Source: an uncultured Bacilli bacterium (GTDB lineage: Bacteria > Bacillota_I > Bacilli_A > RF39 > UBA660). From it: DNA of 64,000 nucleotides. How positions within the stretch are numbered: the stretch's first letter is position 1; every line of letters begins with the position of its first letter. The stretch lies in contig CAJTIX010000002.1 of assembly GCA_910576795.1 (NCBI GenBank), positions 43,372 to 107,371 of the forward strand, written 5' to 3'. Below, one piece after another: positions 4,216 through 42,292 of the stretch. Under the pieces are notes generated by a model. That model worked only from the letters and a program-made list of their open reading frames with translations. It was not told the origin of the DNA and ran no database searches. The translations under genes were made by a program, and so were the position numbers.

Positions 4216-4446
4216 ATGGAAAAAGATATTATTGATGGAAAAGTTATTGCAAATAATATTAGAGCTGAAAGAAACAGAGCAAATTTAACTCAAGAAAATA
4301 CAGCAGAAAAATTAGGAATTTCAACGAAAACATATATTTCATACGAAGAAGATGCTCAATGTATAAAGGCAACAATGCTTTATAAGTTAGCGAAAATATT
4401 TGGTTGTACTATCAATGCTTTTTATTTACAATCCAATTCCACATAG
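4216..4446 (+). CDS. Cro-like HTH_XRE regulator
   Basis: 76 aa, LTQENTAEKLGISTKTYISYE HTH; divergent from CI. Confidence 0.7.
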   Translation: MEKDIIDGKVIANNIRAERNRANLTQENTAEKLGISTKTYISYEEDAQCIKATMLYKLAKIFGCTINAFYLQSNST

Positions 4447-4495
4447 TGTGAATATATGCGCAACAAAAAAGGAAAACAAGAATAGGAGATGAAAA

Positions 4496-19674: not shown

Positions 19675-19748
19675 GCTCCTATAGTTCAATGGTAGAACAA
19701 CGGTCTCCAAAACCGTATATTTGAGTTCGATTCTTGATGAGAGTGCCA
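19675..19748 (+). tRNA. Phage-encoded tRNA-Trp (anticodon CCA), imperfect acceptor stem
   Basis: Canonical D arm TAGTTCAATGGTAGAAC, anticodon stem-loop ACGGT-CTCCAAA-ACCGT, T-loop TTCGATT; acceptor has G1-U72 wobble and C5/A68 mismatch. Confidence 0.6.
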
Positions 19749-19752
19749 AAAT

Positions 19753-19826
19753 GGCAGGATAGAGTAATGGTAACTTATCAATTTCGTTAGTTGATGATGA
19801 TGGTTCGATTCCATCTCCTGCAACCA
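19753..19826 (+). tRNA. Phage-encoded tRNA-like gene, tentatively Thr (anticodon CGU), atypical
   Basis: T arm GATGG-TTCGATT-CCATC, D loop AATGGTA, CCA end; G1/A72 mismatch and U at position 37. Confidence 0.45.
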
Positions 19827-25672: not shown

Positions 25673-25749
25673 CTAGTAATAGCACAATTTGGTAGTGCAC
25701 TACATTTGGGATGTAGAGGTTGGGGGTTCAAATCCCTCTTACTAGACCA
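25673..25749 (+). tRNA. Phage-encoded tRNA-Pro (anticodon UGG)
   Basis: C1-G72 acceptor CTAGTAA/TTACTAG, D arm GCAC-AATTTGGTA-GTGC, anticodon arm CTACA-TTTGGGA-TGTAG, T-loop TTCAAAT, CCA. Confidence 0.75.
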
Positions 25750-38903: not shown

Positions 38904-39533
38904 ATGAGTAAAATATCATTAGAAAAATTTATTGAAAATACAAAAGGAACACAAGTAGATGTTCCGTGGGAAACAAAAAGTAAATTAAAAGGACAATGTG
39001 TTAGTTTGATTCAACAATATATCTTACAATGCCTAGAACAGCCTGCACAAGCTCGTGGTGATGCGAAAGACTGGATTACTTCATATGTGAACGAGGGACT
39101 AGGTTTCGTTGCTGACAAGCCACGAAAAGGGGATATTTTGGTGTTTCCAAATGATGGTGTTATCAATGGTGTTTCATATGGCCATATTGCAATCTGTGTT
39201 GATGAAAATACATTGTATGATCAAAATAACTTTAGACATGACAATGGATTATGTGGATATGGCCAAATCTTTACTACTGATTACGTAGTATTAAGACCAT
39301 ATGCTGAATTAATAGAAGAAACAAAGCCAGTAGAAACACCAGTTCAAGAGTCAATCGAAGAACAACCACAAGTTGATATCCTGGATTTAGTCCGTAGAAC
39401 CATTCGTGGTGACTTTGGAAATGGACAAGCCCGTAGAGATGCTTTAGGTTCAAACTACGATGAAGTTCAAAGACAAGTTAATTTGAATTTGCAAAATGGA
39501 TTAACTCAATGGGACAACATTAGATTGTTCTAA
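38904..39533 (+). CDS. Endolysin: CHAP domain plus C-terminal CW_7 (Cpl-7-like) cell-wall-binding repeat
   Basis: Catalytic Cys (KGQCVSLIQQY) and His (YGHIAICV) of CHAP; C-terminal VRRTIRGDFGNGQARRDALGSNYDEVQRQVN matches the CW_7 repeat. Confidence 0.8.
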   Translation: MSKISLEKFIENTKGTQVDVPWETKSKLKGQCVSLIQQYILQCLEQPAQARGDAKDWITSYVNEGLGFVADKPRKGDILVFPNDGVINGVSYGHIAICVDENTLYDQNNFRHDNGLCGYGQIFTTDYVVLRPYAELIEETKPVETPVQESIEEQPQVDILDLVRRTIRGDFGNGQARRDALGSNYDEVQRQVNLNLQNGLTQWDNIRLF

Positions 39534-39542
39534 ATAATAAAG

Positions 39543-39569
39543 CCTAGTCGTTTGACTAGGTGTTTTTTT
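39543..39569 (+). terminator. Rho-independent terminator after endolysin
   Basis: cctagtc-gtttg-actagg hairpin plus T9. Confidence 0.7.
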
Positions 39570-39605
39570 GTGCAAAAATATAAATAACTATGTGCAAACA
39601 CTTTT

Positions 39606-39646
39606 TATTTGAAAGCATTGATTTATGTAGATTTATGTCGTATAAT
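39606..39646 (+). promoter_or_regulatory. Putative own promoter of the cargo gene (TTGAAA ... TGTCGTATAAT)
   Basis: ttgaaa and extended -10 tgtcgtataat upstream of 39694. Confidence 0.35.
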
Positions 39647-39693
39647 CATAAAAAGACAGCAGTATTGTCTTACTAATTAATGGAGGGAAGATA

Positions 39694-40518
39694 ATGAAAT
39701 CTAGTGAAAAAATAGTTTCTGCTGTTAATATAGAACAGGCTATAAAAGAGGAATTTGAAATTGCACCAAAAATAGTAAAGCCAAAAGTTATTCAATATAA
39801 TTGTATCTATAGTATGTTATACAATGGTGATTTAATAAAAGGTTTGGTTTTATATAATATTTCAAGTAATCATTATGTTGTAGTGCAAATTTTTGATGAA
39901 GAGAAAACAGACTCTATATATCTTAAAAGCATTGATAAATACATTTTATTTAATCAAGTTTTAGATGTTGCAAGAAAGGAAGTTAACTCTGCTATATATT
40001 CAAAAGGATCAGTTCTTCGTATAAATAATCGAGATCGTAAAATTATTATTAATGGATTAAAAAAGATGTTTATTAAAAACATAAGTAATTTAACAAATCC
40101 GTTTATTCCTGATGATCTTAATTGTTTAAAATGGTTTAATAAAGAATTGGTTTTAAATAAAGAACAAGATCATATATCGGAATTATATCGACAAAGACAG
40201 GTGTGTTGGGTTGATTTTGGTACTAATGTTGGTTCAGAATTACGAAAATTAAGACCAGCAATATTGTGGCGATCTTCAAAGGATAAAAAAATATGGACAG
40301 TTATACCTTTAAGTACAAAGTGCAAACAAGACAATTATTATTTTCATTATGATTTAAATAGTGTAAACGATTGTAGTGCTAAAATAGAATCTATGATGAA
40401 TTTTAGTTATAAAAGAATAGTTAGTCCGTATTACAATAAAAATGTTTTAGCTTATATAAATATTGATGATTATCAAAATATCAGAGCAATTATTAAAAAA
40501 TATTATACATTTTCATAG
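39694..40518 (+). CDS. Fusion protein: N-terminal domain of unknown function plus C-terminal MazF/PemK(Kid)-like toxin domain
   Basis: C-terminal VCWVDFGTNVGSELRKLRPAILW ... TVIPLSTK matches the conserved [IV]W.VDF.P..G.E....RPA.V and v.P.[ST][ST] pattern of MazF/Kid; own promoter and terminator. Confidence 0.6.
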   Translation: MKSSEKIVSAVNIEQAIKEEFEIAPKIVKPKVIQYNCIYSMLYNGDLIKGLVLYNISSNHYVVVQIFDEEKTDSIYLKSIDKYILFNQVLDVARKEVNSAIYSKGSVLRINNRDRKIIINGLKKMFIKNISNLTNPFIPDDLNCLKWFNKELVLNKEQDHISELYRQRQVCWVDFGTNVGSELRKLRPAILWRSSKDKKIWTVIPLSTKCKQDNYYFHYDLNSVNDCSAKIESMMNFSYKRIVSPYYNKNVLAYINIDDYQNIRAIIKKYYTFS

Positions 40519-40655
40519 CAAATATTTAAAAATGTAAATAAAAAATCAATAAATTTGAATATTTATTCAATAAAAAGTTGACAATTTGTTAAAAATAAGA
40601 TAAACTTATATTACATTTAATTGATGCATGTGAAAACATGGAATAGATTTAGTTC

Positions 40656-40682
40656 GAAAAAAGGATTTAATTCCTTTTTTTG
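40656..40682 (+). terminator. Rho-independent terminator
   Basis: aagga-tttaat-tcctt hairpin plus T-run. Confidence 0.55.
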
Positions 40683-40696
40683 CTTACTAATTAATT

Positions 40697-40725
40697 TTGA
40701 CTTACTATTTCAAATATGTTATAAT
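40697..40725 (+). promoter_or_regulatory. Consensus sigma-A promoter TTGACT-17-TATAAT
   Basis: Perfect -35 / 17-nt spacer / perfect -10. Confidence 0.7.
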
Positions 40726-40731
40726 TTGAAT

Positions 40732-40896
40732 GTAATATGAACCGCGAGGTTTTGAGACCATTTTTATTTGGCAGCGATGCCGTGAGCTTTAAACAAAGAC
40801 CCATAGCGGTCCGAAAGTTGTTATTTGACCCATAGCGGTCCGTTTTTGCTGATCAGTCGTTGATGAGCTAAAATTCCAACTAACAGTTGGTTTTTT
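40732..40896 (+). ncRNA. Candidate structured small RNA (about 160 nt) with GNRA hairpins and two GACCCATAGCGGTCCG repeats
   Basis: Bounded by consensus promoter and hairpin+T6 terminator (40876-40896); locally GC-rich; hairpins AACC-GCGA-GGTT (40740-40751) and GGCA-GCGA-TGCC (40770-40781); 16-nt repeats at 40798-40813 and 40827-40842; only ORF is 31 codons without SD. Confidence 0.5.
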
Positions 40897-41074
40897 ATTT
40901 TTCTCTTAACAATTCAAAGAAACGATCAGAATACTCTTGTTGCATTTCAATTGCTTTTATAAATTGTGCCTTAGTTTCATCGTTATTAAATCTTGAATGT
41001 GCTATTCTGCATTTTCTTACTAGATCATTGATTACATCCAAAACATTCTTTTTGTATAATTCTATAATTGACAT
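40895..41074 (-). CDS. Small helical protein (59 aa)
   Basis: ATG with AGGTGA SD; convergent with the sRNA and shares the bidirectional terminator hairpin; below track cutoff. Confidence 0.45.
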   Translation of the reverse strand: MSIIELYKKNVLDVINDLVRKCRIAHSRFNNDETKAQFIKAIEMQQEYSDRFFELLREK

Positions 41075-41183
41075 GATATCACCTGTTATTAGTATGTGAA
41101 TGATTTTAAAATGTATAATATTATATAATCAATTTGACAATCAATATTAATCTGTTATAATACCCTTTTCAGGGGATGTTACT

Positions 41184-41342
41184 ATGCAAATACAAATAAT
41201 AACAGATATATCAAAGATAAAACATATTACAAATAAAGAGACTAAAATAGTCTATCTAAAATACAATAAAAAACGCGCATTCTATAGCACGGATTTAGTA
41301 AAATGGTATATGACATCAGTTGAACGTTTAAAAGGGCTATAA
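41184..41342 (+). CDS. Small protein (52 aa)
   Basis: ATG with AGGGGA SD; upstream ttgaca ... tataat promoter at about 41137-41166; below track cutoff. Confidence 0.4.
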   Translation: MQIQIITDISKIKHITNKETKIVYLKYNKKRAFYSTDLVKWYMTSVERLKGL

Positions 41343-42062
41343 GTCCTTTTTATTTATGTAGTTGAGGATGTCTTTTAAATACTTCTCGGAGACTTTATCA
41401 ATAACAATATTGTCTTCTAAATAAATACTTCTATTCTTTTTATCTATTTTTTCAATTAAATCAGTATTAATGACTTTTGATTTAAAACAATACATAAATC
41501 TTTCGTCTAAACTGTTTAAAATTTCTGTCAATGTTCTACTTACTAAAACATCACTCGATTTGGTTACAATTTTGCATTGTCTATCATTATAGTCAATATA
41601 AATAATTTTATTGATTTGCAATTGAATATAAGCTTCTCGAGTGTTAATTCTTAAAATACGTTTTCTAACTTTTGGCAGTATTAAATATCGTAATTCTTCT
41701 TTTAATTGTTCCATCCAATCTTTTTCCTCTTTATGAATAAATTTTGAGAACATAATTTTCTCTGAAAGTAATTGGTCTTGATATTCGACTTTATGACTTG
41801 TTATAATAATTATAGGGCAATCGGAACCAAGTTTTCTAATTTTATTTGCTATTTGTATACCGTTCAGCGTTGAAAGTTCTATGTCCAAAATATAAATTTT
41901 GTAAAAGTCATCAGATTTGATATTCTTTTCTAATTCATCATTATAATCATAAAATCTACTGATCTTGTATTTTAATTTGTTTTGAATTTGAAAAGAGTTG
42001 ATAATCTTATAAATCTGTTCATTAAATTGTTTATTATCTTCTACTATTATTATTTCAAACAT
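41337..42062 (-). CDS. Orphan LytTR-family response regulator (AgrA/ComE-like)
   Basis: N-terminal receiver (IIVEDN ... YILDIEL phospho-Asp region) and C-terminal LytTR DNA-binding domain; no histidine kinase nearby. Confidence 0.75.
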   Translation of the reverse strand: MFEIIIVEDNKQFNEQIYKIINSFQIQNKLKYKISRFYDYNDELEKNIKSDDFYKIYILDIELSTLNGIQIANKIRKLGSDCPIIIITSHKVEYQDQLLSEKIMFSKFIHKEEKDWMEQLKEELRYLILPKVRKRILRINTREAYIQLQINKIIYIDYNDRQCKIVTKSSDVLVSRTLTEILNSLDERFMYCFKSKVINTDLIEKIDKKNRSIYLEDNIVIDKVSEKYLKDILNYINKKDL

Positions 42063-42272: not shown

Positions 42273-42292
42273 CGAACTGGGGCAGCCAAATA
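42273..42292. repeat. attR core: second copy of 20-bp direct repeat
   Basis: Exact match to 1321-1340; followed by a host-type terminator hairpin accgttg-taaat-caatggt plus T-run. Confidence 0.8.

Follow-up and report, generated by a model that had tools for sequence, protein, structure and literature searches.

Toxins of the MazF/PemK family are textbook components of type II toxin–antitoxin systems, in which they form homodimers and are paired with a protein antitoxin. The toxins of type III systems have this fold as well, yet they belong to distinct families whose partner RNAs are repeat arrays, and ToxN and CptN are examples of MazF-fold toxins that are inhibited by RNA. Toxin and antitoxin can also be fused in a single chain, as in the prophage-borne CapRel(SJ46), which joins a toxic enzymatic domain to a regulatory domain. 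In type III loci, the antitoxin is encoded upstream of the toxin gene as an array of 34-36-nt tandem repeats, and the RNA is a processed pseudoknot (PMC3401426, PMC7781912). The upstream array of ToxIN, together with a leaky terminator, gives an excess of RNA (PMC7781912), and at one toxIN locus the RNA is encoded downstream with a promoter of its own (PMC3401426). In the AbiF(Cd)-RCd22 system of a Clostridioides difficile prophage, a structured non-coding RNA neutralizes the toxic protein by direct binding (bioRxiv 10.1101/2025.04.15.648962).

The locus described here lies in a 64-kb stretch of bacterial DNA, the whole of which we call the window and whose numbering we use throughout (Table 1). 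It shares with the type II systems MazEF, PemIK, and Kis-Kid the family of the C-terminal domain, the fold, the catalytic Arg and Thr/Ser, the GSE...RP loop, and carriage on mobile elements. In contrast to these systems, MazE, PemI, and Kis are absent, the conserved partner is a small RNA (sRNA), and two MazF folds occur in one chain rather than as a homodimer of ~110-aa subunits. Compared with type III systems, the protein matched none of the toxin families ToxN/AbiQ, CptN, and TenpN in Pfam, NCBIfam, or PADLOC, and Tandem Repeats Finder detected no ToxI-like upstream repeat array at the locus. The RNA is encoded downstream, with a separate promoter and terminator, in one unit or two diverged units, and is built of a tail and a hairpin rather than a pseudoknot. 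Genetic linkage of a non-coding RNA to the toxin, which characterizes type III systems, was found at 84 of 87 loci and is accompanied by covariation. By its predicted anatomy, the module falls outside all three described type III families, although its mode of action is probably that of a type III system.

The module resembles AbiF(Cd)-RCd22 in its prophage carriage, its gut Bacillota hosts, and its type III-like pairing with a non-repeat RNA, here a candidate antitoxin. However, the AbiF(Cd) toxin is of the Abi_2/HEPN type and not a MazF fold, and its RNA carries abiF motifs and belongs to an unrelated family. The Rfam pemK motif (RF02913), a structured RNA named for its association with pemK, is also a distinct family, and the sRNA here is downstream. 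Relative to CapRel(SJ46), the second domain here repeats the toxin fold in degenerate form instead of being of an antitoxin type, and there is a separate conserved RNA partner in addition. Literature searches on tandem, fused, or solitary MazF and on MazF with an RNA antitoxin found nothing, as did searches for the two-domain protein or the sRNA, and this pairing of toxin and sRNA has apparently not been described previously. We are highly confident in the anatomy, namely a tandem MazF fold with a dedicated structured sRNA. Our main reading of it, to which we assign a probability of roughly 55%, is a two-component module of the type III kind, made of a toxin and an RNA antitoxin, that serves as an accessory gene of a temperate phage.

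Table 1. Predicted features of the module, in window positions unless a locus is named
Feature	Position	Strand	Basis
Putative promoter-like site, TTGATT-17-TATAAT	39618..39646	+	consensus scan; inferred
Shine-Dalgarno sequence, GGAGGG	39682..39687	+	sequence; 6 nt 5' of ATG
ORF for tandem MazF-fold protein, 274 aa	39694..40518	+	homolog search; AF2 model
N-terminal degenerate MazF/CcdB-fold domain, aa ~34-133	39793..40092	+	lacks GSExxKxRP and (S/T)TK motifs
Inter-domain helix, aa 139-156	40108..40161	+	AF2 secondary structure; K146-W147 invariant in alignment
C-terminal PemK/MazF catalytic domain, aa 167-271	40192..40506	+	invariant E182, R187, P188; S207-T208-K209 motif
sRNA unit 1 promoter, TTGACA-17-TAAACT	40578..40606	+	consensus scan; locus alignment
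sRNA unit 1, ~73 nt, candidate RNA antitoxin	40611..40683	+	covariance model, covariation
sRNA unit 1 terminator hairpin, then U-run	40655..40682	+	fold
Second transcription unit, ~165-nt RNA	40697..40897	+	promoter and terminator predictions, fold
Candidate +1 frameshift loci	L028, L055, L065, L066, L069, L072 (4170-4200), L073, L075, L078-L080, L083-L092, L094-L096, L098

The two-domain protein

The toxin gene is a single ATG-started reading frame that agrees to the nucleotide, from ATG to stop, with the position given in an earlier note on this DNA. The promoter-like site in front of it lies 3' of a terminator (39542-39561) that ends the upstream gene, a CHAP/CW_7 endolysin; conservation of this promoter-like site was sought in other loci, and none was found. 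At the other end of the gene, Tandem Repeats Finder reported a weak AT-rich tandem array with a 32-nt unit (40469-40548, +, 2.4 copies, 70% matches), which overlaps the final codons and the stop codon of the ORF. The segment that contains it is missing from five aligned homologous loci, and the array probably reflects low sequence complexity, not repeats of the ToxI kind.

The C-terminal half of the protein belongs to the PemK/MazF family. Such a domain had been proposed in the earlier note from a motif, VCWVDFGTNVGSELRKLRPAILW...TVIPLST, which we located at residues 170-208, and the assignment is borne out by a Pfam match of residues 167-268 to PF02452, PemK_toxin, above the gathering cutoff (29.2 bits against 23.1, E 1.1e-6). 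Among 87 aligned homologs, E182, R187, and P188 are invariant, with S or T at position 207, followed by T208-K209. In an alignment with what we take to be the sequence of E. coli MazF, the residues E182, R187, and the S/T207-T208 region correspond to E24, R29, and T52. Judged by these residues (R187, S207/T208), the C-terminal domain is predicted to be catalytically competent. The family profile had no match in the PDB by sequence, so the PemK domain is divergent, and structure comparison of the predicted model identified the SH3-like barrel fold of MazF, Kid, and CcdB.

Other database searches returned little for this protein. Pfam found PF02452 only, NCBIfam and PADLOC gave no match for the tandem MazF-fold protein, and no family among the PADLOC-DB 2.0.0 defense-protein models matched at E up to 10. 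Among the viral structures of BFVD, only generic PemK-like proteins were retrieved, with a TM-score of about 0.3 relative to the query. A match to PHROG 1412 (annotated as "antitoxin mazE-like") was confined to residues 145-222, and we rejected the name as evidence of an antitoxin because the match covers the start of the toxin domain only. A single-sequence PDB search also matched designer pentatricopeptide proteins (E 7e-8), which we consider an artefact, since the score is a sum of ~4 bits per stretch across identical designed repeats and falls on the non-conserved residues 8-52.

The N-terminal half is a second, degenerate MazF-fold domain according to structure prediction. The first ~160 residues had been described in the earlier note as uncharacterized, and this held for Pfam, NCBIfam, and PADLOC, where they had no match; however, structure prediction, which that note had proposed as a check, gave a MazF fold both for the full-length AF2 model (pLDDT 86.2, pTM 0.70) and for the N-domain alone. 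The interpretation in that note is partly supported, and its idea that this half might be a fused antitoxin is weakened, as the N-domain model resembles toxins and no antitoxin. Its likeness to CptN is structural only, and both the catalytic Arg and the Thr/Ser are missing from it. Among the 87 aligned homologs, the invariant residues of this domain are S57, H60, and Y102, with N59, K82, and D91 almost so. The first 30 residues form an extension of low confidence and poor conservation, which only the window protein and its close homolog P0002 have in common.

Homolog surveys suggest that the two domains are inherited as one unit. Among 5.8 billion proteins searched, 340 homologs were found, most of them ~243 aa long with 81%-89% of the query covered, which indicates that both halves are conserved together. 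When 1.84 billion representatives were scanned with the N-domain using HMMER, only 23 clusters matched, all of which were family members or their truncated or frameshifted copies, so the N-domain exists only in fusion. We considered a standalone N-domain protein and a split two-gene version, and rejected both, as the short matches were truncated or frameshifted copies. The protein may be a single-chain pseudo-dimer in which the N-domain replaces the second subunit of the MazF homodimer. The two domains would pack like the subunits of a MazF dimer and form a single asymmetric active site; the evidence for a fixed arrangement of the domains is one value, the pTM of 0.70.

The downstream sRNA

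The DNA that follows the toxin gene is more conserved than the gene product. Positions 40572-40686 are ~74%-75% identical between loci whose proteins are only 50%-57% identical. Within this region, the sRNA (unit 1) consists of a single-stranded 5' tail (UUACAUUUAAUUGAUG), hairpin P1 (40627-40640), a single-stranded linker (GGAAU in the window, conserved as a GGAAG-type linker across loci), and an intrinsic terminator. The 16-nt tail is near-invariant even alongside proteins that are just 40%-45% identical. The -35 element, an A-rich upstream stretch, and the -10 element of the promoter are conserved across loci (TTGACA-17-TATAAT type).

Covariation supports the two helices of the sRNA. In 54 distinct sequences, 97.9% of helix cells were paired, compared with 35%-56% in slid controls, and the covariation score was 0.58, compared with 0.08-0.18 in these controls; none of 500 shuffles equaled the observed pairing percentage or covariation score. 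Compensatory changes occurred in 12 of 17 pairs, and G-U pairs were frequent. The sequence of the terminator stem varies by locus, with compensatory changes in nine of its 11 helix pairs. Since the G-U pairs and the terminator fix the strand, we interpret the conserved element as an RNA and not a DNA site. We do not claim a closing helix between tail and linker (UACA/UGUA versus UACU/AGUA), as only 73.6% of it was paired.

A covariance model built from the alignment of homologous loci showed how closely the sRNA is tied to the toxin gene. In the 64-kb window, the sole strong match was unit 1 itself (63.6 bits, E 1e-10). Across the loci, exactly one strong match was found immediately 3' of the toxin gene in 84 of 87, and the remaining three have less than ~120 nt of downstream sequence before the contig ends. 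Elsewhere in 634 kb, only one further match reached E 0.01, a weak one to unit 2 in locus L034. The core motif lies on the same strand as the toxin gene, a median of 48 nt past the stop codon, in 90 of 92 loci. The model also gave a weak match at 4392-4474 (-) in the lysogeny-control region of the prophage (17.9 bits, E 0.16), which contains a P1-like hairpin and a GGAAU element and is probably due to chance. No relevant Rfam family matched the window at the gathering threshold. Rfam 15, including RF02913 and the type III antitoxin RNAs, gave no relevant match at E up to 10 in 39500-41400, and none at E up to 1 in seven diverse loci.

Linkage was also assessed from the RNA side. A scan of metagenomes with an exact pattern of the sRNA returned 28 matches, 21 of which had the toxin gene 49-118 nt upstream. 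The others comprised one contig that was too short, two weak chance matches, and four genuine sRNAs (56-76 bits) without an intact toxin gene. In two of these orphans, L109 (522-1900) and L117, an Abi_2 (AbiD/F-like) gene replaces the toxin gene except for its last ~25 codons while the sRNA is kept, a replacement at the same site that adds to the resemblance to AbiF(Cd)-RCd22. In L102 (13377-14826) and L108 (339-1894), no toxin gene is present, and sRNA units 1 and 2 come directly after an HTH-ImmA/IrrE gene. We note that orphan sRNAs are few (n = 4) and that some of them may be recent deletions. No toxin gene without the sRNA was found among those with enough downstream sequence, and frameshifted toxin copies exist. 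The sRNA was thus seen without the toxin but not the toxin without the sRNA, an asymmetry that is expected of an RNA antidote. In L079 (4559-6019) and L080, a 486-aa transposase-like ORF lies between the toxin gene and the sRNA. Despite this inserted IS element, both are kept ~1.6 kb apart.

The arrangement of transcription signals suggests that the sRNA is produced in two forms. No terminator separates the ORF from the sRNA promoter, so the sRNA terminator likely also ends the toxin mRNA; indeed, the sRNA promoter is so close to the stop codon that the toxin mRNA must end there. Consequently, each toxin mRNA carries one copy of the sRNA.

A second unit follows the sRNA in some loci. Three sRNA subtypes were distinguished. 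Types a and b have a second diverged unit 39-43 nt further on, and type c, the largest clade (37 loci), has unit 1 only. The canonical unit 2 has the tail and hairpin of unit 1 and a different 3' part; in two-unit loci, a distance of ~119 nt separates the units, and both have a -10 region and a terminator of their own. In the window, the slot of unit 2 is occupied by a divergent transcription unit with a TG-extended promoter (TTGACT-17-TATAAT, 40697-40725) and a terminator at 40876-40890, a variant common only to the closest relative, L017, and there limited to the 5' ~60 nt. The unit contains two GCGA-tetraloop hairpins, ACCGCGAGGT at 40741 and GGCAGCGATGCC at 40770, as well as two exact 16-nt repeats of GACCCATAGCGGTCCG at 40798 and 40827. 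It had no Rfam match, and its predicted fold was no improvement on that of shuffled sequence (z -1.1). The unit may have arisen by degeneration of a canonical unit 2, and we are uncertain whether it is part of the module.

Genomic context, distribution, and a frameshift clade

The module is carried by a prophage in the window. The 3' end of a tRNA-Gln gene (1321-1340) is repeated exactly over 20 nt (CGAACTGGGGCAGCCAAATA) at 42273-42292, and a tyrosine integrase gene (1359-2624, -) adjoins the repeat, which together indicate a ~41-kb prophage integrated in tRNA-Gln. The module sits between the endolysin gene and attR, an interval that is the classical site of phage accessory ("moron") genes. 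Behind three unrelated types of endolysin, homologs are found in this same position; other homologs come after Mob_Pre relaxases or lie in islands that also contain BREX, type I restriction-modification, and SMC/T5orf172 genes. The neighbors include defense-type genes (BREX, type I RM, Abi_2), and this setting fits an addiction or abortive-infection cassette. The prophage also carries plus-strand tRNA genes (Trp-CCA 19675-19748, Thr-CGT 19753-19826, Pro-TGG 25673-25749), and a LytTR orphan response regulator gene lies between the module and attR (41337-42062, -). A LytTR gene is likewise placed in prophages of the P0004 type (L002: 7237-7566, -); the two proteins showed no similarity by tblastn.

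Gene neighborhoods yielded no candidate for a conserved protein antitoxin. The toxin gene was present in 99 of 99 other loci, and the window's gene neighbors were absent from all 99. Upstream neighbors vary and include CHAP, M15, and M23 endolysins, Mob_Pre relaxases, HTH-ImmA/IrrE peptidases, an IS1595 transposase, and a class II tRNA synthetase, with no protein neighbor conserved across the family among the surveyed loci. Downstream lie two small ORFs, of 59 aa (minus strand) and 52 aa (plus strand), neither with a Pfam match, and none of the window's small ORFs recurs in the 99 homologous loci. The earlier observation that no MazE/PemI-type gene adjoins the toxin gene was therefore confirmed, and an adjacent, co-transcribed antitoxin gene of the MazE/PemI/Kis type, as expected for a type II system, was not found.

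The family was restricted to metagenome-assembled genomes (MAGs) of gut and rumen Bacillota in the homolog survey. It was absent from GenBank phage records by megablast and tblastn and nearly absent from IMG/VR (two loci). A search of IMG/VR with the exact structured pattern, which would reveal a phage-borne decoy copy of the sRNA, gave no matches.

One clade shows a frame change within the toxin gene. The reading frame changes by +1 at one invariant site of the N-domain in 25 of 27 Clostridia-type loci, each of which belongs to a separate species genome. Intact genes read ATT AAA GGA CTT GTT (IKGLV) and shifted genes read ATT AAA C GGA TTA GTT, with protein conservation following frame 0 up to AAA and frame +1 from GGN. 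The +1 frame is then open for ~175 codons, with 74%-83% identity to an intact homolog. The frame-0 codon at the shift site is CGG in all 25, and CGG is the rarest sense codon in the Clostridia-clade loci (6 of 34,064 codons). A comparable hungry-codon +1 frameshift is that of Ty1 at CUU-AGG-C. From these sequence patterns, we consider AAA-CGG a probable candidate for programmed +1 ribosomal frameshifting, which would hold the synthesis of full-length toxin to a small fraction. The window's own toxin gene is in one frame and has no such shift. The frameshift clade supports the view that the protein is dosage-sensitive.

Proposed mode of action and alternatives

We propose that the sRNA is an antidote that acts on the protein. 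The C-terminal catalytic domain and the dead N-domain would together form one asymmetric RNA-binding groove. Two sources of antidote would be available, the ~73-nt sRNA from its own strong promoter and the 3' end of the toxin mRNA, and the internal promoter would add an excess over the one copy per toxin mRNA. The sRNA would bind the protein directly and keep it inactive, with the probable contact being the single-stranded 5' tail with UACAU and the adjacent hairpin. If synthesis of the sRNA stopped or the sRNA decayed, as might follow infection by a phage, a shut-off of host transcription, or loss of the element, the RNase would be freed to cleave cellular or phage RNA and arrest growth, with abortive infection, superinfection exclusion, or post-segregational killing as possible outcomes. 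The tail could also be a pseudo-substrate, as UACAU is the cleavage motif of Bacillus subtilis MazF (PMC7781912). However, UACAU is replaced by UACUU in the type c clade, which makes such a role speculative.

Toxicity, binding of the RNA by the protein, and inhibition are all things we infer, and we favor this RNA-antitoxin reading by a little over even odds. An ordinary type II system seems extremely improbable by comparison with what was found at the loci, as it would require an overlooked small ORF or an upstream XRE-HTH or HTH-ImmA/IrrE gene to encode the antitoxin. HTH_3 or HTH-peptidase genes do lie immediately upstream in about one quarter of the surveyed loci, and where the upstream gene encodes an XRE-type HTH protein, that protein could be an antitoxin in those loci. 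However, no HTH gene is found upstream in the window, which has an endolysin instead, in the close homologs P0002 and P0004, or in the Mob_Pre loci; the small ORFs of the window are not recurrent, and the alignment of the sRNA region contains no conserved ORF. Control of toxin synthesis at the RNA level, either by type I-like base-pairing with the mRNA or by a cis effect of the 3' UTR on stability or processing, is suggested by the toxin mRNA running from the nearby stop codon into the sRNA and ending at its terminator. In the window, the tail can additionally pair with 39617-39632 (-11.6 kcal/mol), but this best site coincides with the promoter, 5' of the likely transcription start. When tails and toxin mRNAs were compared at 44 loci (RNAduplex), there was no conserved pairing site, and the best duplexes were scattered between -150 and +765, counted from the start codon, their energies being of the size usual for AT-rich sequence. 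This lack of conserved complementarity speaks against an antisense mechanism, and an RNA encoded on the same strand as the toxin gene cannot be a cis-antisense RNA, so we rejected a type I assignment. A cis effect also fits poorly with the IS insertions of L079 and L080, which part the gene from the sRNA without loss of either, and we regard control at the RNA level as very unlikely.

Two other alternatives give the sRNA a different role. In a single-chain abortive-infection protein, the N-domain and the helix with K146-W147 would autoinhibit the RNase in cis until a phage product released it, and the sRNA would merely help to regulate expression or the stability of the mRNA. The domains are always fused, the N-domain is never found alone, the linker helix has invariant residues, and the prophage and defense-island setting agrees; fused CapRel-type proteins are a precedent. 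Nevertheless, we consider this unlikely, as the N-domain resembles toxins and no antitoxin, and as cis-inhibition explains neither the essentially 100% retention of a structured sRNA with its own promoter nor the survival of the sRNA after toxin loss. The module might also be a ribonucleoprotein (RNP) rather than a toxin system, with the protein processing or stabilizing the sRNA or the tail steering the RNase to one RNA. The 1:1 linkage and the near-invariant 16-nt tail would also fit a specific RNP, and MazF-family enzymes recognize short single-stranded motifs (PMC7781912). We find this highly doubtful, given that the sRNA occurs without the protein but the protein not without the sRNA, that frameshifted copies and frameshift-limited translation suggest a dosage-sensitive, harmful protein, and that carriage by prophages, mobilizable elements, and defense islands is typical of toxin–antitoxin and abortive-infection modules.

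More tentatively, and at somewhat less than even odds, the RNA-antitoxin reading can be extended to an unrecognized type III-like class. Its toxin would be a chain of one live and one dead MazF domain with the sRNA tail in the substrate groove, and it would travel as a mobile cassette of gut Bacillota prophages, mobilizable elements, and defense islands, one clade using a +1 frameshift at a hungry CGG codon to set the toxin dose.

The module would bridge type II and type III systems, as a PF02452 domain is apparently paired here with an RNA and not a protein. Its protein would be a MazF dimer built from one chain, with a single active site, and its sRNA represents a family that has no Rfam match and is widespread in human and animal gut Bacillota. 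At ~1 kb, the module could be a compact cassette for studying RNA-mediated inhibition of MazF. The AAA-CGG frameshift, if true, would be a rare bacterial case of hungry-codon recoding that sets toxin dose. For the prophages of these gut bacteria, the module is a candidate defense or addiction function.
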